A DNA stretch of 11,181 bases from Candidatus Hodarchaeum mangrovi (GCA_016839515.1 JAEOUE010000048.1:1-11181); one strand, 5' to 3'; positions 1 through 11,181 are shown, counted from the stretch's first letter. Made by a program: numbers and translations. The notes: a model not told the origin generated them from the letters alone.

Positions 1-2889
1 CTTTATTCGACCGTATTGATGAATAATGTATATGATACTGTTATAGAGGGTTCTCCTTATGAAATTCGTATAGATTTTAGAGGAAATTTTAATGATTCCC
101 AACTTGAAGGTTTTAAGAATAATTTCAAATCTAATCCACAGGTTTTAGATGCGCAGCTTTTATATGGCAATGCACGGACAATTGTAGAAACAACTGGTAC
201 TTCTACAACTATGTATACTCTTGCCAATTTAGAAGCTGAAATACTCGTAGAATATAGTAATCAAACGTTCTCAAATGCTGAAGGGATTGTTTTCTCAAAC
301 ACCTTCCTTTCTTCCTCTGATATTGGAGTTAGATTTAAGAATAAGCTACTTACATCACCAGATACTGGAATATATACTAATTCTAGTCCCTATTATCATG
401 GTGTAATAATTTCAGAGGATCTAGTTGAAAAAGCACGAATTCAACAAGGAAACATCCTAAAATCTATTACTCTAGCAATTACTCAACAAGATCCAGAGAA
501 TATTTTCAATCAGAATACTCTTTCTCAAATTACTTTAAGTAATGTAACAGTAGCAGGGATAATATCCTCAGATATTGGAGCCTCTGCAGGAATTTTCTCT
601 GAAGCATTAATGTTTGGAACAGCTGGATCAATTTATGTACCTCAAGAATTACTGGAAAGTCAAAATAAAACCGTATTCTTAACAGATCTTCGAATGAATG
701 AAATGAGATACGCAGTTATAAAAATAGATGAGGATAAATTTAATTTAGCTGATCCACAACAAGTTAATAGCCAAATTAACCGGTTAATAAATGAAATTGA
801 GAAAACCAATTTGGTTTTCATTGGAACTAATCTTGTGGAAGGACAGTTACTACCATTTCAAATCTTAAGCCTGTTTATCTTTATTTTTGATGGGATTCTT
901 ACTGTTCCAGTTGCTATTTTATCATTATATTTACTCTCTTTTGGTGTAGATCTATCATTACATGAAAGAAAATATCAAGTAGGAATTTTAAAAACTCAAG
1001 GAGCCTCTCCAAGGCAAATTAAGCGAAAAGTGCTAATAGAGACATTTATTCTAGCCATTAGTGGCTTAATTATCGGTTATTTAGTTGCGATATTCGCTGC
1101 ATGGGGTATTGGAACAGCAAAAGGATTTATGAGATGGGATTGGGATTATGCATTAAGTGAGCTTCCCGACTTTTTCTATTTCGACCAAATAGCATTTTTT
1201 GTGGTTGGAGGACTTATTTTTGTAATATTATTACTCATGGTAAATGGAAAAGCAAATACTTTTATTGAAATGGAAATAACTGAGTCTGTACGTCGTACAG
1301 AGGTTAAAAAACAAAATTTTCTACGTCGTAATAATCTAGACTTAATATTTTTTACTATTGGACTTCTAGTATTAGTTTTAGTTATTGCGAATGATTGGTT
1401 TGGCTATTACATTAACTTAGGAGTAGTTGGAGGATTTCTAGCACTTTTAGGACCTCCTCTATTTTGGATAGGAGGAGCTGCTTTAGTCGCTCGCTTAGCT
1501 GTCTTCATACCTCCTAAAGCAGATCGTGTAACACGGAAAATAGGATTCTTAAAAGATATCAATTTATTAGCGAAAGGGAATGTTTTTCGAAAAGCAGGGG
1601 ATATGCCACGATTAGCTTTAATTATAGCTTTAACTGTATCGTTCAGTGTTCTCGCTGCAGTACAAGGCAATACAGGGGAATTTCATAAAGAACGTCTAGT
1701 AACTTTTGAAGTTGGTGCTGATCTTTCGGTTTCAACTAGTCTTAATTTTTCATCATTAATAATACAAGAATTCGCAGCTAGCTCAGATAAAATTGATAAT
1801 GCTATGGCTATTGGAGTTACTTCAGCAATGGTATTCAATGATCCAGTTTTATTATATACAATCGATAATCAACTTTATGACACTGTAGGAATTTGGCAAA
1901 GTGATTCTGTTCCTGATTCTACTCCAACAGACTTAATAAATAGTTTAAGAGAGGATCCAAATGGAGTTCTTCTTGGTAAAACAGTTTTTCGTGAAAAAGC
2001 GTTGGAAATTGGTGAATCCTTTACAATTGAAATATTAACATATCATTGGAATGGATCGTTTATTAATTATGATTTTATTCCGCATAATGTGACCGTAAAA
2101 GGTGTGTTTGATCACTGTCCCGCCGGAATTGGACCAAGCAATATAATTATCGATCATTCATTACTTAATCGTGTCAGTAATTTGACTGCTTTAGCTGAAA
2201 ATTTAAGCTCATTACCTCCATTCATAACTGCATTAATCCCAAATTTTCTTAAAAATCAATTAAATTTATTTACAAATGATTCAAAAGGTATATTGGCTTC
2301 AAAATATCTTATCAAAACAAAACCAAATGCAGATGTTAAAGCTATTAAAAGTGCTCTTCTTTCCCCTACAAACTCATGGATTATATCTGTTAAAACTTTG
2401 AAAGAGGAGATTCGACAAGCAAATGAAATTGAAAATGTTGATTATGGAATACCTGGCTTATTAACTGCTGATTTTGTCATCTCTCTACTTGCAGCCACTT
2501 TAGCTACATTTATATTCATGAGTATTCTAATGGAACAACGAAAAAGAGAATTTGCTATTCTTCGTAGTTATGGTGCCTCTGATCGTCAAATTTATAAGTT
2601 AGTATTTAGTGAATCAGCTGTATTACTCCTTACTTCTGTAATTTGGGGATTAATAATTGGATTAGGCCTTTCAATACTATTTAATGGGTTTTTTGAATTT
2701 ATCGATGTTTTTATAACTCCTTTAAGTACCCTTGCTTCTGGTGTGACATTAAAGCGCTTAATTATATTTGATACCTTGGGATTAATAGGAACACTGACCC
2801 TTACTCTAATAGCTATGTTAATTGCTACCTATTTCTCCACACGAAGTTCTATTAAAGCAAAAATTTCAATCGTTGTTCGTGAATTATAG
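1..2889 (+). CDS. FtsX/MacB-family (type VII) ABC transporter permease with two fused FtsX modules; 5'-partial
   Basis: The frame is open from base 1 (CTT TAT TCG ACC GTA TTG ATG...), so the TTG at 16 is probably not the true start, and the expected first TM helix is absent. Two FtsX signature segments are present: ERKYQVGILKTQGASPRQIKRKVLIE and QRKREFAILRSYGASDRQIYKLVFSE. Each follows a large extracytoplasmic domain and sits among TM helices. The gene lies directly upstream of an ABC ATPase and ends with TAG at 2887-2889. Confidence 0.92.
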   Translation, partial: LYSTVLMNNVYDTVIEGSPYEIRIDFRGNFNDSQLEGFKNNFKSNPQVLDAQLLYGNARTIVETTGTSTTMYTLANLEAEILVEYSNQTFSNAEGIVFSNTFLSSSDIGVRFKNKLLTSPDTGIYTNSSPYYHGVIISEDLVEKARIQQGNILKSITLAITQQDPENIFNQNTLSQITLSNVTVAGIISSDIGASAGIFSEALMFGTAGSIYVPQELLESQNKTVFLTDLRMNEMRYAVIKIDEDKFNLADPQQVNSQINRLINEIEKTNLVFIGTNLVEGQLLPFQILSLFIFIFDGILTVPVAILSLYLLSFGVDLSLHERKYQVGILKTQGASPRQIKRKVLIETFILAISGLIIGYLVAIFAAWGIGTAKGFMRWDWDYALSELPDFFYFDQIAFFVVGGLIFVILLLMVNGKANTFIEMEITESVRRTEVKKQNFLRRNNLDLIFFTIGLLVLVLVIANDWFGYYINLGVVGGFLALLGPPLFWIGGAALVARLAVFIPPKADRVTRKIGFLKDINLLAKGNVFRKAGDMPRLALIIALTVSFSVLAAVQGNTGEFHKERLVTFEVGADLSVSTSLNFSSLIIQEFAASSDKIDNAMAIGVTSAMVFNDPVLLYTIDNQLYDTVGIWQSDSVPDSTPTDLINSLREDPNGVLLGKTVFREKALEIGESFTIEILTYHWNGSFINYDFIPHNVTVKGVFDHCPAGIGPSNIIIDHSLLNRVSNLTALAENLSSLPPFITALIPNFLKNQLNLFTNDSKGILASKYLIKTKPNADVKAIKSALLSPTNSWIISVKTLKEEIRQANEIENVDYGIPGLLTADFVISLLAATLATFIFMSILMEQRKREFAILRSYGASDRQIYKLVFSESAVLLLTSVIWGLIIGLGLSILFNGFFEFIDVFITPLSTLASGVTLKRLIIFDTLGLIGTLTLTLIAMLIATYFSTRSSIKAKISIVVREL

Positions 2890-2893
2890 GAGG
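2888..2893 (+). promoter_or_regulatory. Shine-Dalgarno site for the ABC ATPase
   Basis: AGGAGG overlaps the permease stop codon and lies 8 nt before the ATG at 2902, consistent with an operon and translational coupling. Confidence 0.75.
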
Positions 2894-2901
2894 AAAAAAG
2901 A

Positions 2902-3879
2902 ATGGCTAAATCACTATTAAAAGCGCAAAATCTTTATCACATTTACCGTGCTAAACAAGATCAAGCATCAGTTGTGGCATTAAAAGGTGTAGGTTTTGAA
3001 ATCTCACAGCGAGAATTTGTTGCAATCGTTGGGCCTTCTGGATCTGGGAAATCAACATTGTTACGAGTTTTGGGGGGCCTTATGAGACCGACAGCAGGAT
3101 CTGTTATATTCAATGAAGAATTTGACATAACTAAAACCTCTGAAGAGGATTTGACTTTCTTTCGTAGACATGAAGTTGGTTTTGTTTTTCAAGAGGGTAA
3201 TCTTCTTCCTGACTTATCTGCTTATGATAATGTTGTTCAATCAATGACGCTTGCAGAGGTCCCATATGAATTTAGAAAAAAACGTGCATTGGAATTATTA
3301 GATACCATGGGTGTTCTTCCTCGCAAAAACCAGCTTGCTACACGGTTAAGTGGAGGAGAAAGACAAAGAGTAGCTATAGCACGTGCAATGGCAAATAATC
3401 CACGAATTATTATTGCAGATGAACCGACAGGAAATGTAGACTTCAAAACTAGTGTTCGATTATTAGAACTATTTAAACAGTTAAATCGAGATACAGGAAT
3501 GGCATTTCTTTTCGCAACCCATTCAAATCATGTTGCAGGGTATGCAAATAGAAGTATAGAGCTTAGAGACGGTCTTTTTCTGGGACAACATGGAAAAGAT
3601 ATTGACCTCTCTAGCTTAGATCTTTCTCGGATGGTAATTATGGATAGTGATAATCGTATTACCTTACCCGAAAATATTATGGGTCAATTAAAAGAAGTAG
3701 GATCACTGTGGAATATTAGTGTAGTAGAATCTAAAAAAATCCTCTTGACTCCCTTAGAAGCTATTGCTGAAGAACAAGTCCCTATTCAGGACAGTTTTGA
3801 ACAACGTGAGTGTCCAGTATGTGGTATCATGAACCCACCAGAAGGAAAATTTTGTATCTCATGTGGAGCGAAGTTCTAG
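2902..3879 (+). CDS. ABC transporter ATP-binding protein (LolD/MacB/FtsE-like) with C-terminal AbrB/MraZ-like segment and zinc ribbon
   Basis: Walker A GPSGSGKST, Q-loop VGFVFQEGNLL, signature LSGGERQRVAIARA, Walker B/D-loop IIIADEPTGNVD and H-switch ATHS are all present. An extra ~90-aa tail ends in CPVC-x10-CISC. Confidence 0.95.
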   Translation: MAKSLLKAQNLYHIYRAKQDQASVVALKGVGFEISQREFVAIVGPSGSGKSTLLRVLGGLMRPTAGSVIFNEEFDITKTSEEDLTFFRRHEVGFVFQEGNLLPDLSAYDNVVQSMTLAEVPYEFRKKRALELLDTMGVLPRKNQLATRLSGGERQRVAIARAMANNPRIIIADEPTGNVDFKTSVRLLELFKQLNRDTGMAFLFATHSNHVAGYANRSIELRDGLFLGQHGKDIDLSSLDLSRMVIMDSDNRITLPENIMGQLKEVGSLWNISVVESKKILLTPLEAIAEEQVPIQDSFEQRECPVCGIMNPPEGKFCISCGAKF

Positions 3880-3931: not shown

Positions 3932-6900
3932 TTAAGTAACTTTCGGTTCAAGCATTATTGGATAAATGACTTTTAAGCGGAAACATTTCTCTAATAATTT
4001 GTATGCTTTGACAAGTGATACTCCATGTTTTGTAAGAGATGAGGTAAAAGTAACCACATAAAATGCAATTTGACCATCACGAAGCAGAAGACCCTTCAAG
4101 TATAATATGTGTTTTCGTTCTTTTTCAGTGAATTCCTTTCGCTGATTCTGAAATCGGTTAAAATCAAGGGTTAATTTACTTAATAATCCGACATTTAGAT
4201 GTTGATAGATCAATCCTCTAAATTCTTCAGGATAGTCTCTTATTCCTACATCTTCTAGATCCTGTTGACTAAATCTTGTTTCAATTGCCTCATGAAGTCT
4301 TGTAATCTTCTCTTTCATAAATTCACTTAAACGTCCTTCAGATACCAAGCTTATTGTAGAATATTCACCATGATGCGATAGTATACTAAACCCTTCTCTT
4401 TCTAATACATCAAATTCTCCTTTCTTCATCGCTCTTTTAGATACTTCAGTTACAAGACTAGATACAGCTGATGTTAATCCTGCTGTTAAATCAAGATCCT
4501 GAGTTTCAACTAAAAAGTTTTCAGTATAGAATGCTATTCCAAATTTATTTCTACAAATAATCGATCTTATGCTTAAAACATCAGTAAAACGTTGGGCTAT
4601 CTCTTTTTCTTTCTGCTTTTTTACATATACTTTTTGTCGTTGTCTTCTCCGAAGACTAACTGCTCCAAAAATAACCACCAAAGGAATAACTATACCAGCG
4701 ATTATAACTGGTAAATACTCTTCCCATGAGATGGAATTATCTGTTGGAATCGTAATGAAAAATGGCTGAGAAGATGATTTCGAAGTACTAAATATATTAG
4801 AACCTTCCTTTGCAATTATACTCCATGTAATTGTTCCACTATTAGAGAAAGAGAGGGTAGTAACATATAAACTACCATTATAATCCATATTAACTGTTTC
4901 TGTCTGTAAATCAGCTCCACTTCCTCCAGACCCTCCTTGGGAAACAAATTCATAGTCTAAGATTACCTCAGAAATTCCTGATCCCCAATCTGAGACATTA
5001 GCCCATATTAAAATCGAATTGTCTGATTTTTGAAAAATACCAGCATCTATAATCACTGGCCCCCAATAGGTTTTCAAACTAACATTCTCGACTAAAATAA
5101 AATTAGGTTTACCATCATAAATTAATATTGAATAGTTGAAAGTACAATTACAATGGATATAAGTTGAATATGAATACTTTGAAGCTATTAAGCTCATTCT
5201 ACCGAATAAATTTATCCATGAGGTGCCATTAAAGTAGTCTATTGTTATTTCAGCAGCATTAATTGAACCAAAATAATCTGTTGCATCAACCCAAAAATTT
5301 AGTCGAGAGAAAGAATGATTTATTAAGGTTTCAATATATCCAAAATCTTTAACAATTGGAGGAGACTTGTCTTCAATAATCTCCATATTCCAATGGGTAA
5401 TTGCTAGATTATTACAATTGTCATATGCACTTATTCTGTAATTAAATGCGTTCCCTGGAACAAATCCTGAAACTGTATATGTATAAATATTTTCTGATCC
5501 ATTCTTAGACATAGTTTCGTTAAAAATGGAGATAAATACAAATTCTAGTCTTACTGAGGAATGATCAGATGGAAGACCACTTCCAGTCGAATATTCAATC
5601 ACCTCAGCCCAGAATGTTACGGTACCATTTTGATATTCATAAATACCAGTATTTAGTATTTTAGGAGCTGATATATCATTTATCAGAATCGTACGATTAC
5701 TTATTCCTAAATTACCTGCGTTATCAGCTGTCCAGACTTCTATGATAACTTCTTCTCCATAATTAAAGGTTTGTTCGAAGGTATAGAAGTAGAAGGAATC
5801 ATACTCCATTAGATATTGATTTGTAATACTTTGATGTGTAAAATTAATGTAAAAAGTGTTATTGATATCACGCACGTCCCCATACAGATCGTTTGCCCAA
5901 GAAGTTATCGAAATCTTTCCATCGGTAACAGAGGAATTTTCTATTGTAAAAAAAACTGTTGGTGGAATTAAATCACTCAATTCAATCTTTTGATACTGGT
6001 CAGGAGTAATATCTACTATATTGGAAGCTGAATCGATAGCTATTGTATAATACCAAACATCGTGAAGTCTAAAGTCGAAATTATGGATTTCTTGGTAAAA
6101 TAGATTGTCATCAATACTATTCATTGATACATTATACCAAGTTCCAAAATAGTTTTGCGTATAATAAAGAGTCGCCGTAGTATCATTATCAGGCCAATCA
6201 ATAACATTAGAATTAAATAAAACTGTACCATTGCCAAATTCTTGAGCATTGAAAGTAATTTTTGGTACACTATTATCACCAATAACCGCTATATGTTCAA
6301 ACCCCCAATTTATATTGCCTGCAAAATCCGATGCAGTAATTCTATAGACTACTGTGTCATTAAAATTAAATGTATATTCAAATTCGTAGGTTATTTCACC
6401 AATTGGATATAAAGGAAAAGTATCATTGGCCCAACTGCCATTATAAATTGCTAGATAGATAGCTACACTACTGTTATTTACTCCACTTTGATATTCATTC
6501 ATTTCTTCTACAGTAGCTCTAAAGACTACAAATCCCTCTTCATGAGCACTTAGATTATAACTTGCATCATATATGACTGGTTGATATGAATCTTGAGGAT
6601 AAATTAACCCAAATTGGGGAGAAAACGTATTATTGTTCTCATTACCGACACTATCAACTACTGAATGAATAGAATAGTTTAATAAAACATTATAATAAGC
6701 AAAGGTCTCAAAAATCCATAATCCAGACGAATTGAGATACATATTCGAGTAAGTATTATTAATTCTTAACACAACTTGTTGGACAAGACTTTCTTCGTCA
6801 GATACATTAGCGTAAAATATTAATGATCCATCTTCATTATCAGAAACGTTGTAGTAGTATACAATAGGGGGAGTTAAATCGCCTAATGTGAAAAATAAGT

Positions 6901-8326
6901 TCTCGGATTGCTTTTTGTTAGATGCAATATCTAGGGCAGATATATTGTAATAGACATTGATTCCCAAACTTGGAACTCCTTCAAGAGCTGTATCATTATA
7001 AAAGTGAGTTCCATCCAAAGAAACCATGGAATAAACGCTATCACGTAAAACAGAAGAATCTGTTGAATTTTTAATAGTTAAAGAAAGGTTGACACTATTA
7101 ATTTCGCTTTCATCAAAAACATCAGCCATAAACGTAGTATTTAATGGATAAAAATGGATATTAGTTATAATTGGAGCATTATTATCATTGTATTCCTCAA
7201 TTTGAACAGAAAAGAATAATTCTGGATTTATATTATAAGTACGTTTACCAGCAACTTCCAAAAATTGTAATTCAGTGTTAATTGTGTCTTCATATTCAAT
7301 AGTGATATTATAAAGCCCAAAAGGAATATCAGCAAAGGTAGTCAATCCTAAGCTAGATGTATTTTGAATCCAAATATTTAAGGGATTATTTACATCTATA
7401 AGAGTTGCTTGAGCATTTGTTACTGTTTTATTAGCTAAATCAGTTACTTCTACTGTTAAAGATGCATTTCCAGGATTGTCATTATATAATAGCCAACTTA
7501 ATGTTTTATTCCAGCTTTTCCAACCATTTGTAGACAATGAAGAACCCCAACCTGCGCCCCAAAATGCTCTCCTTTCAGGAGCTAATGAAAGATCCCAAGC
7601 TTTCTTCCCTTTGTCTAAAACAACCCATGTTGCTTCACCTAGATAAATCCACTTACCTTGATTATCAGATCGTAAAGCAATAAGTTGAATTTCTACTCCA
7701 TTGGGAATATATCTGTAATCCTCAATAAAACTAACAGAGTTTGATTCTATATAAACTGGAAAGATGGATTCACTGTTAAGATCTTCAGAAACAAAATGAG
7801 TGTTATCATGGATATAAAATTTAGAAGTATCCTTAATACTATATGAGCTTCCAAGTTTAAATTCGTCATAATGACCTGCTTGCATTGTAAGGATAGGTAT
7901 TGGGGCATTAGATAATGAATCAACGGTACCAGCTTCCGCTACTGAGCTTGATATTACAATAACGTCGAAATTATCATAAATATATGGTCCTTTGCTAGTA
8001 CGATATGTAACATTGTAATCAAGGACTGTGGTCATAAAATCATAAAAAGGAATATCTTTATCTGGGTTTGGTGATATAGCATTATCCACAATAAACAGAA
8101 TTTGAGGTTGTTGAAAGGGTTGAACAGATAAAATAATGTCATTTTCATTATTATGTGAGTTTGGATTTATTGGTGTTCCAGTTATAGGGGGAACAAAAAT
8201 AGATTGATTTGTTTGAGTACCGAGAAAGTTAAAATAATTTAAAATACAATAAGATAGACTAGGAAGACTCAATATCGTACATACGAGCAAAAAACAAATT
8301 TTTATTTGAATTTTAGATGATTGCAA
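3932..8326 (-). CDS. Large single-pass cell-surface glycoprotein, receptor-like: Ig-like repeat ectodomain, TM helix, cytoplasmic longin/roadblock-like domain
   Basis: A 1464-aa ORF with a TTG start immediately after an in-frame TGA. It has a hydrophobic N-terminal signal (KICFLLVCTILSLPSLSYCIL), about 8 beta-rich repeats and many N-x-S/T sequons. The TM helix YLPVIIAGIVIPLVVIFGAVSL (aa 1204-1225, nt 4652-4717) is followed by RRRQRQK and a ~240-aa cytoplasmic region. Confidence 0.88.
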   Translation of the reverse strand: MQSSKIQIKICFLLVCTILSLPSLSYCILNYFNFLGTQTNQSIFVPPITGTPINPNSHNNENDIILSVQPFQQPQILFIVDNAISPNPDKDIPFYDFMTTVLDYNVTYRTSKGPYIYDNFDVIVISSSVAEAGTVDSLSNAPIPILTMQAGHYDEFKLGSSYSIKDTSKFYIHDNTHFVSEDLNSESIFPVYIESNSVSFIEDYRYIPNGVEIQLIALRSDNQGKWIYLGEATWVVLDKGKKAWDLSLAPERRAFWGAGWGSSLSTNGWKSWNKTLSWLLYNDNPGNASLTVEVTDLANKTVTNAQATLIDVNNPLNIWIQNTSSLGLTTFADIPFGLYNITIEYEDTINTELQFLEVAGKRTYNINPELFFSVQIEEYNDNNAPIITNIHFYPLNTTFMADVFDESEINSVNLSLTIKNSTDSSVLRDSVYSMVSLDGTHFYNDTALEGVPSLGINVYYNISALDIASNKKQSENLFFTLGDLTPPIVYYYNVSDNEDGSLIFYANVSDEESLVQQVVLRINNTYSNMYLNSSGLWIFETFAYYNVLLNYSIHSVVDSVGNENNNTFSPQFGLIYPQDSYQPVIYDASYNLSAHEEGFVVFRATVEEMNEYQSGVNNSSVAIYLAIYNGSWANDTFPLYPIGEITYEFEYTFNFNDTVVYRITASDFAGNINWGFEHIAVIGDNSVPKITFNAQEFGNGTVLFNSNVIDWPDNDTTATLYYTQNYFGTWYNVSMNSIDDNLFYQEIHNFDFRLHDVWYYTIAIDSASNIVDITPDQYQKIELSDLIPPTVFFTIENSSVTDGKISITSWANDLYGDVRDINNTFYINFTHQSITNQYLMEYDSFYFYTFEQTFNYGEEVIIEVWTADNAGNLGISNRTILINDISAPKILNTGIYEYQNGTVTFWAEVIEYSTGSGLPSDHSSVRLEFVFISIFNETMSKNGSENIYTYTVSGFVPGNAFNYRISAYDNCNNLAITHWNMEIIEDKSPPIVKDFGYIETLINHSFSRLNFWVDATDYFGSINAAEITIDYFNGTSWINLFGRMSLIASKYSYSTYIHCNCTFNYSILIYDGKPNFILVENVSLKTYWGPVIIDAGIFQKSDNSILIWANVSDWGSGISEVILDYEFVSQGGSGGSGADLQTETVNMDYNGSLYVTTLSFSNSGTITWSIIAKEGSNIFSTSKSSSQPFFITIPTDNSISWEEYLPVIIAGIVIPLVVIFGAVSLRRRQRQKVYVKKQKEKEIAQRFTDVLSIRSIICRNKFGIAFYTENFLVETQDLDLTAGLTSAVSSLVTEVSKRAMKKGEFDVLEREGFSILSHHGEYSTISLVSEGRLSEFMKEKITRLHEAIETRFSQQDLEDVGIRDYPEEFRGLIYQHLNVGLLSKLTLDFNRFQNQRKEFTEKERKHILYLKGLLLRDGQIAFYVVTFTSSLTKHGVSLVKAYKLLEKCFRLKVIYPIMLEPKVT
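4745..7186 (-). repeat. About 8 diverged ~100-aa Ig-like (beta-sandwich) protein repeats
   Basis: Units begin DNNAPII, DLTPPIV, DSYQPVI, DNSVPKI, DLIPPTV, DISAPKI, DKSPPIV and YWGPVII. They share a (N/D)G-x-V-x-F-x-A-x-V-x-(D/E) strand, and most end with Y-x-I-x-A-x-D-x-(A/S)-(G/S)-N. The repeats are visible at protein level only. Confidence 0.75.
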
Positions 8327-8652: not shown

Positions 8653-9486
8653 ATGAGTCAAATTCCATCAAAAGGAATAGATTTCTCGAGTCTACCTCCA
8701 GTTCAGATTATGGTTCATGTCCCCAACGACGAAATCAGATTAAAAATTTATTGGATAAAATATGCAGACAAAATAATCAAGGAAATAGGAAAAATTCTAG
8801 AAAAAATTGTAGATTCAAAAATGTACTACCATTTAGGATGCATAAACAATAAAAAAAGCATTGTTCTAAAGTTATGTCTAGCTTGTCGAAATGGGAATCT
8901 CTATATAATTCAAGAACGTAAAGGAACACTTAAGCCTATCTTACTTCAATTTGACTTTGAATGGAGACTTTTTTTAAGATGGAGGGTTCGGGTAAAATTA
9001 TTACGGGGTTCTTTTCCAATATTATCCAATGGTAAAGAAAAGAGAGAGAAAAAGGAGAATATCAATCAATCATCAATAAATTATCAATTAGATTATCCAA
9101 CAGAGTGGTTTAATATTGGGGTTTTATTACAGAAAGAAAATCAGTATAAGGAAGCAGAAAAAGCTTATCAAAAAGCAATCAAGAAAGATCCTTCTTTTGC
9201 TCTTGCTTGGAATAATCTGGGGGTAATGCTAGTAAATCAAGGAGATTATACGAGAGCGGAAGCGGCCTATCGAAAAGCAATTGAACTTGATCCCTATCTC
9301 GCCATAGCATGGTATAATTTAGGGAATAGATTAGTAGTAAAAAATCTAGAAAAAGATGCAGAAGCTGCTTATCGAAAAGCTATTGAATTAGAGCCAGATT
9401 ATTTAAAAGCTAAGGTACAATTAGACCAATTATTACTCAATAAAAAACAAGAAAATGAGTTCGAAGAATTACTTTTGTCCTCTTAG
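8653..9486 (+). CDS. Tetratricopeptide repeat protein (3 TPRs plus capping helix) with uncharacterised N-terminal domain
   Basis: Three exact 34-aa TPRs with a W-x-N-(L/I)-G ... A-x-x-A-Y-x-K-A-I-x-x-(D/E)-P consensus. The ~125-aa N-terminal alpha/beta region and charged linker have no obvious signal peptide or TM helix. Confidence 0.9.
   Translation: MSQIPSKGIDFSSLPPVQIMVHVPNDEIRLKIYWIKYADKIIKEIGKILEKIVDSKMYYHLGCINNKKSIVLKLCLACRNGNLYIIQERKGTLKPILLQFDFEWRLFLRWRVRVKLLRGSFPILSNGKEKREKKENINQSSINYQLDYPTEWFNIGVLLQKENQYKEAEKAYQKAIKKDPSFALAWNNLGVMLVNQGDYTRAEAAYRKAIELDPYLAIAWYNLGNRLVVKNLEKDAEAAYRKAIELEPDYLKAKVQLDQLLLNKKQENEFEELLLSS
9097..9402 (+). repeat. 3 x 102-nt TPR-encoding repeats
   Basis: Units are 9097-9198 (PTEWFNIG...KAIKKDPSF), 9199-9300 (ALAWNNLG...KAIELDPYL) and 9301-9402 (AIAWYNLG...KAIELEPDY). 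Confidence 0.9.
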
Positions 9487-9663: not shown

Positions 9664-11181
9664 ATGATTAGAAAAGTAAAATTATCTAGAAATTTGTTCA
9701 TGTTATGTTTCATCATAATTACAATTACTTATAGATTAGTAAATCTTACACAACACCAAAATAATTATACTATACAATGGACTCTTCCAAAGAAACTCAT
9801 GAATTCCCCTAATGTCACGATAACCTCCCCAATGGCTACTACTTATACATCAATGAATATTACAGTTGAGTTAAATGGTGATGCAGTTCATTTTTGGTAT
9901 TATATAACAAGTATAGATACAATAAATAGAACTTGGTTTACAAGTGAAAATCGGGTTATTACAGAGGATGGTTCTTATACTCTCCATGCCTATGGGAATG
10001 ATTCACTTGGAGATATTACTCATGTGTCTGTTTCATTTATTATTGATACCCTTCCCCCAATAATTACCAATTTAAGGGCATATGATGAAGCTGGAGGAAA
10101 TATTTTACCAGAAAATAACTGGCATAAAGATACAGATCCTCTTTTCACATGGGATGTGTCTCCTGACGTAACAGGCATTTTAGGTTACAGTACTTCAATT
10201 AATAGTATCCCTGATACTGTAGTTGATACCACTGAGAAAAGTATGGTCCTATCTGACCTATCTGAAGGTATAACTAACTTTAGTGTCAGAGCTTGTGATA
10301 ATGCTGGGCATTGGGGTCCCCCAGCTCAATTCAGGTTTAAAATTGATACTCTTGGGGATGATGTGTTAATTTCCTCTTCAAGTCATCCCGATGAAGGATC
10401 ATGGTATAGCAATAATACAATCACATTCTGTTGGTCAACTTCTTCCTCTACATCCCCTATTGTAGGATATAGCTATATCCTTGATCAGCTACCAACTACA
10501 GAGTCAGATGCTACCATAGATATCTCTACTCAATCCCTTATTTTCGAAAATATCAGTGAAGGAATCTGGTACTTCCACATTCGAGCAATTGATCAAGCAG
10601 ATAATATTGGCCCTGTCGATCACTATAAAATTATGGTTGATTATTCTGTTCCTATGATCTTAAACCTTCGATGCTATTCTGAACCAGGAGGATATCTAAT
10701 GTCAGAAATTGACTGGTATCAAGATACTGATCCATTTTTTGCTTGGGATGTCACTCCGGATGTGAATGGAATCCTCGGTTATAGTACCTCAATTAATGGG
10801 ATTCCTGATACGACAGTTGATACAACAGGCCAAACAATGGCCCTTGCTGCCCTTCCTGATGGAGTCTGTAACTTCAGTGTACGAGCCTGCGATACTACAG
10901 GAAATTGGGGTCCCCCAACTCATTTTATACTTCAAATTGATACCATTGAGGAAGATGTCCTAATTCTGTCCTCAAGCCATCCTGAAGAGGGTACCTGGTA
11001 TATTAATAATACAGTCTCATTTAATTGGTCTACCTCTTCCTCTAGTTCTCCCATTCTTGGCTATAGCTATAATTTTGATCAATTACTTATAACAGAGCCA
11101 GATGCTACCGTAGATATCTCTACTCAATCACTTATTTTTGAAAATATTAGCGAAGGAATTTGGTACTTCCATCTTCGAGCA
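9664..11181 (+). CDS. Secreted/surface Ig- or FN3-like repeat protein, 3'-partial (not in the ORF track)
   Basis: Manual translation from the ATG at 9664 gives 506 codons with no stop to the window end: MIRKVKLSRNLFMLCFIIITITYRLV (signal-like) ... SPNVTITSP...DGSYTLHAYGNDSLG...IDTLPP ... EGIWYFHLRA. It has one Ig-like domain (about 9805-10044), then alternating A/B beta-sandwich domains with several N-x-S/T sequons. Confidence 0.92.
   Translation, partial: MIRKVKLSRNLFMLCFIIITITYRLVNLTQHQNNYTIQWTLPKKLMNSPNVTITSPMATTYTSMNITVELNGDAVHFWYYITSIDTINRTWFTSENRVITEDGSYTLHAYGNDSLGDITHVSVSFIIDTLPPIITNLRAYDEAGGNILPENNWHKDTDPLFTWDVSPDVTGILGYSTSINSIPDTVVDTTEKSMVLSDLSEGITNFSVRACDNAGHWGPPAQFRFKIDTLGDDVLISSSSHPDEGSWYSNNTITFCWSTSSSTSPIVGYSYILDQLPTTESDATIDISTQSLIFENISEGIWYFHIRAIDQADNIGPVDHYKIMVDYSVPMILNLRCYSEPGGYLMSEIDWYQDTDPFFAWDVTPDVNGILGYSTSINGIPDTTVDTTGQTMALAALPDGVCNFSVRACDTTGNWGPPTHFILQIDTIEEDVLILSSSHPEEGTWYINNTVSFNWSTSSSSSPILGYSYNFDQLLITEPDATVDISTQSLIFENISEGIWYFHLRA
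10045..11181 (+). repeat. 594-nt (198-aa) in-frame tandem duplication, A-B-A-B
   Basis: A1 is 10045-10344, B1 is 10345-10638, A2 is 10639-10938 and B2 is 10939->11181. The offset is exactly 594 nt at every anchor checked (DTDP 10129/10723, GIWYFH 10561/11155). Hand count gives about 60/100 aa identical for A and about 62/81 for the visible part of B. Confidence 0.93.

Follow-up and report, generated by a model that had tools for sequence, protein, structure and literature searches.

What does a giant surface protein of an Asgard archaeon carry on the inner side of its membrane, and what might be held there? This question is raised by a gene of Candidatus Hodarchaeum mangrovi, located in an 11,181-nucleotide (nt) stretch of DNA (GCA_016839515.1 JAEOUE010000048.1:1-11181; hereafter the window, meaning this stretch at its full length), which has about 32% G+C and contains five large open reading frames (ORFs). 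The gene is a single ORF on the minus strand at window positions 3932-8326, with a TTG start and its stop at 3932-3934, and its product is 1,464 amino acids (aa) long. Judging from the sequence, it probably encodes a type I surface protein, predicted to be N-glycosylated, of a Hodarchaeales-like Asgard archaeon. A large ectodomain, one transmembrane (TM) helix, and a cytoplasmic longin fold followed by a small helical domain are shown or confidently predicted from sequence features and structural models, and we consider this architecture and fold to be very likely as described. The parts of the gene are as follows, with immunoglobulin abbreviated as Ig:

3932-8326, minus strand: whole gene, encoding the 1,464-aa single-pass surface protein
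8237-8326, minus strand: N-terminal hydrophobic segment, aa 1-30, putative signal peptide or signal anchor, with a hydropathy peak at aa 3-30
7472-8119, minus strand: N-terminal ectodomain module, aa ~70-285, without a Pfam match
7178-7471, minus strand: beta-sandwich-like module, aa ~286-383, with a weak Ig-like Pfam match
4757-7177, minus strand: about eight tandem repeats of ~100 aa, aa 384-1190, probably an Ig-like stalk, with a recurring motif, alignable units and many sequons
4646-4732, minus strand: single TM helix, aa 1199-1227, hydropathy maximum 2.86, with RRRQRQK next to it
4574-4645, minus strand: basic juxtamembrane helix, aa 1228-1251, net charge +5, a helix at residues 2-24 of the tail model
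4178-4573, minus strand: predicted cytoplasmic longin-fold domain, aa 1252-1383, from an AlphaFold2 model and structure searches
3950-4177, minus strand: C-terminal winged-helix-like domain, aa ~1384-1459, net charge +9, from a separate model with weak structural matches

Only two hydrophobic segments are present in the protein according to Kyte-Doolittle hydropathy (19-aa window, threshold 1.6): aa 3-30, which comes after a lysine-bearing start, and aa 1199-1227, which is directly followed on its C-terminal side by RRRQRQK. All 41 N-X-S/T sequons lie in the ectodomain of about 1,170 aa, where approximately 20 would be expected from composition, and none lies in the 237-aa tail, where about 0.7 would be expected. 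Six orthologues possess 35-46 sequons each, with 0-2 of them in the last 240 aa. Lysine and arginine make up 2.4% and 1.4% of the ectodomain, against 8.0% and 6.7% of the tail. Both the sequon distribution and this difference in basic residues agree with a split between an outside ectodomain and an inside tail, and the type I layout proposed in a preliminary description of this locus is supported by the two hydrophobic segments, the basic motif and the confinement of sequons to the outside. The putative signal peptide or signal anchor at aa 1-30 has counterparts in 10 of the 11 orthologue N-termini compared, which show a similar hydrophobic stretch after a short charged start; the exception, P0144, seems cut short at its start.

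The tail is the part of special interest. We modelled it with AlphaFold2 from an alignment of the tail with 38 short relatives (alignment A1; tail residue 1 corresponds to aa 1228), and obtained a predicted local distance difference test (pLDDT) score of 91.1 and a predicted template modelling score of 0.85, with all five models at pLDDT 89.5 or above and 187 of the 237 residues at 90 or above. In the model, the juxtamembrane helix (tail residues 2-24) stands ahead of a sheet whose elements, assigned with DSSP, are E26-33, E38-43, H51-69, E78-83, E86-92, E96-102 and H108-124, followed by helices to residue 155. In protein numbering, these are strands 1253-1260 and 1265-1270, helix 1278-1296, strands 1305-1310, 1313-1319 and 1323-1329, and helix 1335-1351. 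The order beta-beta-alpha-beta-beta-beta-alpha(-alpha) around a five-stranded antiparallel sheet, by which a longin is recognized, is thus what DSSP gives for aa 1252-1383 of the model.

Structure searches place this domain among the longins. VIA-align, a search independent of Foldseek and run against 48,161 chains, typically gives best Z scores of 7-8 for models without a clear match; here its top match was synbindin (2zmv_A, Z 12.7, root-mean-square deviation (rmsd) 3.0 A over 122 residues), with sedlin (2j3w_A, Z 12.5), VAMP7 (4afi_B, Z 12.2), Sec22 (Z 11.8) and Ykt6 (Z 11.2) also scoring highly, as did the longin domain of a Lokiarchaeota Roadblock-Longin protein (8yqg_B, Z 10.8), while LokiRag 9m28_A reached Z 9.5. 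Rows 1-23 (Z 9.6-12.7) are all either entries titled as longins or other longin-fold proteins, namely the TRAPP small subunits, AP sigma and mu N-termini, delta-COP, CPLANE and Lst4. Roadblock entries rank lower (Z 7.7-9.5, versus 9.6-12.7 for longins), and the longin rows cover model residues 24/25 to 155. A longin differs from Roadblock/LC7 in that its sheet is not packed against an N-terminal helix and that extra helices stand on its C-terminal side; in the model, the juxtamembrane helix comes ahead of the sheet. TRAPP, Mon1-Ccz1, Ragulator and SRX-SR-beta components are also represented among the structural matches found by VIA-align. Foldseek against the PDB returned 17 matches at E <= 1e-3, all of longin or roadblock type (zeta-COP, AP sigma subunits, VAMP7, LAMTOR proteins and dynein-roadblock chains of axonemes), with MglB and an Asgard roadblock just above the cut (E 1.4e-3 and 1.7e-3). 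Because Z reaches 12.7 where 7-8 is typical, the assignment of aa 1252-1383 stands well above background, and we predict a longin fold for this segment from the model.

The relationship is visible at the level of predicted fold. Neither Longin (PF13774) nor Robl_LC7 (PF03259) was found when the whole protein and the tail were compared with Pfam (hmmscan, E <= 1), no other Pfam family matched the tail at that threshold, and comparison of the tail with PDB sequences by phmmer and a profile search gave nothing below E 0.2. A search of the ESM Atlas with the tail yielded only unnamed archaeal clusters (0.92 and 0.89). The preliminary description had read a longin/profilin-like order of strands and helices from the sequence over aa 1252-1352; that order agrees with DSSP on the model, the fold is supported by the pLDDT, Foldseek and VIA-align results above, and its placement of these residues at nt 4271-4573 is correct. 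The fold continues to about aa 1383, however, and a further domain behind it had been missed.

This further domain comprises the C-terminal ~80 residues, which when modelled alone (pLDDT 84.9) form a three-helix core with short strands (E19-21, H35-50, H58-67, H72-84, E88-90). The best VIA-align match is the RRE-like part of TbtB (Z 7.9); the other rows are mostly winged-helix domains (ORC2, MCM8, SAMD1, LexA, Rpa2) at Z values of only 5.3-6.9, many of the matches being protein-binding winged helices, and Foldseek found nothing at E <= 1e-3. With reserve, we describe aa ~1384-1459 as winged-helix-like on the basis of this model; the assignment is weak, and this counts against the explanation proposed below. 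Its net charge of +9 stands at the upper end of the family range (-6 to +9, median +2).

Outside the membrane, the ectodomain is less readily classified. The N-terminal module (aa ~70-285) has no match to a Pfam family; its look-alikes in the ESM Atlas are unnamed bacterial clusters with scores of 0.90-0.91, and its mean identity among 10 orthologues is 56%. A weak Pfam match to an Ig_DR_A0283-like domain covers aa 287-347 (E 0.034, below the curated cut-off), and three orthologues have a precomputed match to PF13620. From aa 384 to 1190, the motif xP[PIVKT][IV]x recurs every 96-102 aa in units that can be aligned with one another, and these are probably Ig-like stalk domains, as far as the sequence pattern indicates.

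Is the tail a chance feature of one protein? Its conservation argues otherwise. In the same 10 orthologues, conservation is highest in the longin part, with a mean identity of 70%, compared with 56-61% for parts of the ectodomain, 58% for the winged-helix part and 45% for the TM helix. A HMMER search with the tail over 1.84 billion protein representatives found 131 at E <= 1e-3, of which 45 were at <= 1e-10 and 15 at <= 1e-30. Since the longin part is the most conserved among the orthologues and 131 representatives carry the tail, we regard the feature as more than chance. Across 132 proteins, the conserved tail positions are G36 (88%), Y40, D50, G56 (91%), A60 (96%), F64, R83, G85, S102 and E122 (89%); R83, which is R1310 of the protein, is conserved in 85 of 131 aligned members (64% of 132).

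The tail is also portable. Sorted by what precedes the domain, the 131 representatives comprise 113 in which a hydrophobic helix comes immediately before it, 13 short ones that begin with the domain (fragments or free forms), and five with soluble N-terminal extensions. We ran Pfam on 22 of the 131, picked for length or oddity: eight had ectodomain matches (Laminin_G_3, K319L-like PKD, Big_13, ChitinaseA_N, and weaker Ig-like and macroglobulin-type matches), FG-GAP was found in P0092 (one of the five representatives without an upstream helix), two were soluble fusions with Peptidase_C14 (caspase) and DUF87/HerA respectively, and 11 had no family at all. The caspase fusion is P0088, a metagenomic protein of 498 aa in which Peptidase_C14 (E 2e-16) lies N-terminal to the longin tail module without any TM helix. 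In BLAST comparisons with more distant members, the alignment is confined to the tail, with or without the last repeat. The 131 representatives, the Pfam matches and the BLAST alignments show the tail recurring on paralogues and relatives with different ectodomains.

In its own genome (4.0 Mb, 91% complete), four further single-pass members were found (C344, C23, C208 and the fragment C320), as well as a HerA fusion (C197), three MFS transporters and two soluble proteins with the domain. The transporters (MFS_1; C179:18863-20530, C179:20663-22246 and C251:15275-17017, in loci L078 and L079) have 10-12 hydrophobic segments and end in a longin-tail match with E values of 4e-7 to 7e-4, a layout reminiscent of transceptors. 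The HerA fusion (C197:2366-4969, locus L004) and P0126 combine a HerA/DUF87-type ATPase with the longin and winged-helix module and lack a TM helix; at least 12 related genomes contain frames of ~880-936 aa that match the profile in the same partial way as the C197 protein.

Members of the family belong to Asgard archaea, in line with the setting proposed beforehand, which the orthologues in Asgard metagenome-assembled genomes (MAGs) bear out. The orthologues (52-76% tail identity, 1,338-1,476 aa) come from Heimdallarchaeota, Hermodarchaeota and Promethearchaeota MAGs, and those that bear a name are called hypothetical or 'carboxypeptidase-like regulatory domain' proteins; Hodarchaeota and Heimdallarchaeota MAG contigs encode full-length orthologues that are 57-66% identical. 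For ten clusters, the named members are from Hodarchaeota/Hodarchaeales or Kariarchaeaceae (four 'hypothetical', one 'ATP-binding protein'), and of the remainder one has a name without a taxon and four are nameless. All 17 loci found in GTDB genomes, with an alignment (A3) narrower than the broad A1, are from Hodarchaeota, Heimdallarchaeota or Hermodarchaeota MAGs. The A1 profile at E <= 1e-18 matched 85 of 121 genomes sampled across the phylum and 32 of 46 genera, and the tail profile at E <= 1e-5 matched all 21 close relatives, with 2-16 matches each. The tail family is unannotated in databases.

In the Asgard family f14, we also observed three or four tail-matching frames of ~755-780 aa within 7-14 kb (G089:C13, G121:C83, G027:C30, G078:C75 and G113:C73); their sequences suggest putative tandem arrays of small receptor-like paralogues. 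The window itself is nearly identical (67-95% of sampled words) to contigs of 20 DNA runs from seven studies, labelled as sediment, marine sediment, soil, unspecified metagenomes, or with a coded organism name.

What would such a tail do? By sequence and model, the outer part of the protein consists of the signal segment, the N-terminal module and a stalk with about eight repeats, probably Ig-like; one helix crosses the membrane, and inside the cell the basic helix leads into the longin-fold domain and then the winged-helix-like one. We propose that the tail would be a portable protein-docking module, reused behind unrelated ectodomains, MFS transporters, a HerA ATPase and a caspase, and would most likely hold a common kind of soluble partner at the inner membrane face, beneath its carrier protein. 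That partner may be a small GTPase of the Ras superfamily, or a longin/roadblock protein that regulates such a GTPase, as with the longin and roadblock platforms tethered to membranes in eukaryotes, and the position or engagement of the surface protein would thereby be tied to GTPase-controlled processes. A docking role is probable, because the longin domain is the best conserved part of the protein and the tail is reused behind ectodomains, transporters and soluble enzymes. A small GTPase or its regulator is, by analogy, the single most likely partner class, given the membrane-held platforms among the structural matches (TRAPP, Mon1-Ccz1, Ragulator, SRX-SR-beta) and the operons described below. 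Taken as a whole, a docking platform with a partner of the GTPase class is the best explanation that we can offer, and a tentative one; for this particular protein, we rate the predicted GTPase-system partner as possible but rather doubtful.

The GTPase part of this proposal can be examined in the gene context. The genome has 45 Ras-like genes by a profile built from its own Ras-like proteins, which may miss Arf-like or Rag-like genes, and 52 Pfam Ras matches, together with nine Robl_LC7 matches, seven of them above the curated cut-off. One paralogue, C208:14360-19189 (locus L077), is 1,609 aa long and has the same layout, though its longin tail is divergent. Between its stop and the earliest possible start of a Ras-family gene (19179-19769) there is an overlap of 11 nt, and another Ras-family gene comes next, at 20044-20601. 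In the clade of this paralogue, eight of 12 members have a Ras-like gene nearby, 13-469 nt downstream or, in one locus, 291 nt upstream. We counted a same-strand Ras-like gene within 1.1 kb for nine of 62 unique tail-bearing proteins (those of at least 400 aa from the own genome, 20 relatives and the 17 GTDB loci), versus 15 of 938 own-genome genes of at least 400 aa. The ninth member, L029, has its Ras-like gene 79 nt downstream and belongs to the sister group of the clade that contains the present protein. On a tree from a quick search, the Ras-adjacency label needs at least three changes; the members are kin, hence the counts are not independent. L023 and L030, which have orthologous contexts, show a convergent Ras gene about 445 nt downstream. 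A complex prediction for the C208 paralogue tail and its downstream Ras-like protein scored 0.25 against a mark of 0.32, which is no evidence either way.

Several observations weigh against extending this link to the protein under study. Eight of the nine Ras-adjacent members fall in one divergent clade of 12 within one genus on that tree, so the adjacency reflects few evolutionary events. In the clade of the present protein, none of 10 rows has a Ras-like neighbour, and there is none beside the present gene. In a phylum-wide sample of 60 matches outside the genus, comprising 63 tail genes of which 60 could be evaluated (at least 700 nt of downstream sequence), only one had a same-strand Ras-like gene within 1.1 kb downstream, close to the own-genome downstream background of 34 in 3,706 genes. 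No neighbour of another kind recurs with a telling function either, among 69 of 82 neighbour ORFs analysed with Pfam and 190 non-tail ORFs clustered from 60 phylum-wide loci; the other 13 ORFs were left out (three of L019, the long L020:13447-18795 and, from each of eight more loci, one or two of the outer neighbours). The connection to longins is itself by predicted fold only, as neither Pfam longin or roadblock families nor PDB sequences matched. Longin domains also work without GTPases, for instance in SNAREs and AP sigma subunits. From the gene context, we take the link to GTPases as real in a single sub-branch of the tail family; for the present protein, it is a reasonable but unproven extrapolation. 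The earlier proposal that the protein couples outside contact to small-GTPase signalling thus finds no support in the gene context of its own clade (0/10) or phylum-wide (1/60).

The main competing explanation, which we judge a serious though still tentative one, is that the tail is an anchoring, sorting or clustering module that acts without GTPases. The longin domain would pair with itself or with longin/roadblock proteins, the winged helix would add a second contact, and surface glycoproteins would in this way be clustered, positioned (e.g., on protrusions), or linked to the cytoskeleton or to a layer resembling a coat. More than 100 different ectodomains carry the same tail, and it was found in 85 of the 121 Asgard genomes sampled, as one would expect of a tag for general handling; the putative tandem arrays of tail-matching proteins of ~760 aa in some genomes, as well as the rarity of GTPase adjacency (1/60), point the same way. 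The best structural matches include AP sigma/mu, zeta/delta-COP and SNARE longins, which bind coat or cargo and not GTPases. Asgard longin/roadblock proteins form dimers, according to PMC10933270 and the titles of PDB entries 8yqg and 9jue, and PMC9834061 describes cultured Lokiarchaeia with numerous complex surface proteins and no ordered S-layer. Yet a module of this kind would leave unexplained the Ras-like operons of the C208 clade (8/12) and at L029, as well as the fusion of the domain to soluble HerA and caspase proteins. A second possibility stays with small GTPases and makes the tail a catalytic longin of the GTPase-activating protein (GAP) type, like FLCN, NPRL2 and SMCR8, switching off a small GTPase at the membrane. 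In placing a small C-terminal domain behind a longin, the tail resembles NPRL2/NPRL3 as described in bioRxiv 10.1101/2020.10.19.343400; the lower-ranking matches (Z 8.0-9.1) include C9orf72-SMCR8 (7o2w_A, Z 9.1), the FLCN complex (6nzd_G, Z 8.1) and a SEA-complex chain (8adl_S, Z 8.0); and both the glycine before strand 2 (G36) and the arginine R83, a candidate for the catalytic arginine finger that accompanies the GP motif in GAP longins, are conserved. TRAPP, SNARE and AP-type longins outscore these GAP longins, however, and section 2.4 of PMC12290439 gives as specific to them a GP motif located where the beta1-beta2 loop ends or beta2 starts. At the expected place this motif occurs in none of the 132 members (a shifted G-x-P is present in 56, and this protein has G-I-A), and because it is absent throughout, a catalytic GAP role is very unlikely. 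The tail further differs from NPRL2/NPRL3, FLCN and SMCR8 in having no match to DENN or to an NPRL2-type C-terminal domain and in being part of a membrane-integral protein.

Two other readings concern the winged-helix end and the neighbouring genes. If intramembrane proteolysis freed the basic tail for DNA binding, in a Notch-like or anti-sigma-like manner, the protein would be a membrane-tethered regulator; the charge of +9 is suggestive, and a gene for a site-2-protease-like protein (Peptidase_M50 with CBS) adjoins both an orthologue (L017:10744-11832, minus strand) and a related gene (L021:6271-7356, plus strand). Against this, the charge is peculiar to this protein and not conserved in the family, the peptidase gene lies beside only two distinct loci of 63 (L014-L076, a set that includes duplicates; a third match, in L038, coincides with that in L017), no M50 homologue at E <= 1e-5 was found in the 91%-complete genome, and the winged-helix matches are weak, many of them to domains that bind protein. 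For these reasons, we consider a released regulator highly improbable. Least probable of all is that the surface protein, the FtsX-type permease and the ABC ATPase next to it (window 16-3879) make up a single system for export or adhesion, for which adjacency and convergent orientation speak; no orthologous locus keeps an FtsX, ABC ATPase, TPR or Ig-like gene beside the giant gene, and the sole match is an unrelated ABC-2 type transporter in L017 with 29% identity.

How does the proposed platform compare with known systems? With the eukaryotic longins (synbindin/sedlin, VAMP7, Sec22, Ykt6, AP sigma/mu and zeta/delta-COP), the tail shares the same predicted fold over about 130 aa (Z 11.1-12.7, with an rmsd of 2.5-3.9 A over 122-128 residues in most rows and 6.4 A for VAMP7 2vx8_A) and a predicted place on the cytoplasmic face of a membrane. 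It differs from them in having no detectable sequence similarity, in its fusion behind the TM helix of a giant glycoprotein, and in the winged-helix-like domain that follows. The N-terminus of the present longin lies at the membrane, whereas in SNAREs the longin occupies the N-terminal end, a long way from the anchor at the C-terminus. A working analogy is Ragulator-Rag, where roadblock dimers anchored by LAMTOR1 dock Rag GTPases on lysosomes: both would be membrane-held platforms, although the one described here is fused covalently to a transmembrane glycoprotein instead of using a lipidated scaffold, is predicted to have a longin and not a roadblock fold, and would dock a GTPase only by analogy. 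A likeness to MglB-MglA is seen in the sister clade of the tail family that is operonic with Ras-like GTPases, as mglB is found in an operon with mglA.

Nearer at hand are the longin/roadblock proteins of Asgard archaea (8yqg; LokiRag 9m28 and 8yl2; the Thor and MK-D1 roadblocks in PMC10933270), which belong to the same phylum and fold class and whose family is expanded in the same genomes as the tail family. Asgard fusions of longin domains with GTPases, TRAPPC3, Vps28-C/adaptin ear and two-component domains are reported in sections of PMC10933270, PMC10936438, PMC4917890 and bioRxiv 10.1101/2020.10.19.343400, and on these published examples the longin domain is widely shuffled. The examples given in those sections are soluble or fused to GTPases, while the present one is the tail of a single-pass surface protein. 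Full-text literature searches returned no longin as the cytoplasmic tail of single-pass surface proteins; the asCOG tables (Nature 2021) may list the family. The contributions of the present analysis are evidence on the fold of this member, the Ras-like operons with their restriction to a clade, a phylum-wide control with a negative outcome, and the MFS-longin fusions.

The remaining genes of the window, as well as those around related loci, show little that is shared. The FtsX, ABC ATPase, TPR and Ig-like neighbours are not kept beside the orthologues, and the Pfam and clustering analyses of neighbour ORFs showed, besides one nameless ORF, only local housekeeping genes (RadA, phosphoglycerate mutase, Fe-S oxidoreductase, VTT, RsmB and DNA methylase). 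The nameless ORF, of ~190-200 aa and without a Pfam match (L108:1442-2050, minus strand), lies near tail genes in seven loci of six genomes, which may be only local synteny among kin. Within the window, positions 16-3879 on the plus strand encode an FtsX-type permease of 957 aa, whose N-terminal extracytoplasmic part is very large, and then an ABC ATPase with a C-terminal zinc ribbon (DZR/Zn_Ribbon_1, E ~1e-3). At 8653-9486 on the plus strand, divergent from the giant gene, is the gene for a 277-aa protein whose C-terminal half contains three TPR repeats and whose N-terminal half is unassigned. At 9664-11181 on the plus strand is a second surface protein with a signal-like start and ~190-aa repeats (Big_13, E 3.7e-10), two of which are long and nearly identical in stretches; its ORF runs off the window, and its C-terminus lies beyond it.

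What would these findings mean for the Asgard archaea? Their genomes encode dozens of small GTPases and of longin/roadblock proteins with roles to explain, and cultured cells display many unexplained surface proteins. A longin module on surface glycoproteins and transporters would provide a physical site, at the inner face of the plasma membrane, where part of that machinery could act. The segment aa 1228-1464 makes a short, expressible bait for partners, and the pairs of receptor and Ras-like genes in the C208 clade are concrete candidates. Should the GTPase link fail, the tail would still be a useful marker for the surface proteome of these archaea. A bolder generalization, which we think unlikely though worth stating, is that the Asgard archaea nearest to eukaryotes own a large nameless class of receptor-like proteins whose longin and winged-helix platform recruits or regulates small Ras-superfamily GTPases directly, without kinases. 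This class would embrace giant adhesin-type glycoproteins as well as MFS transporters, and the C208-clade operons would be the visible trace of a family-wide coupling, an extension that we hold to be equally doubtful. If the proposed link between surface protein and GTPase is true, it would bear on how membrane-to-GTPase signalling arose before eukaryotes, and the class-wide form would represent a prokaryotic forerunner of the wiring from receptors and transporters to GTPases, comparable to SLC38A9-Ragulator-Rag.

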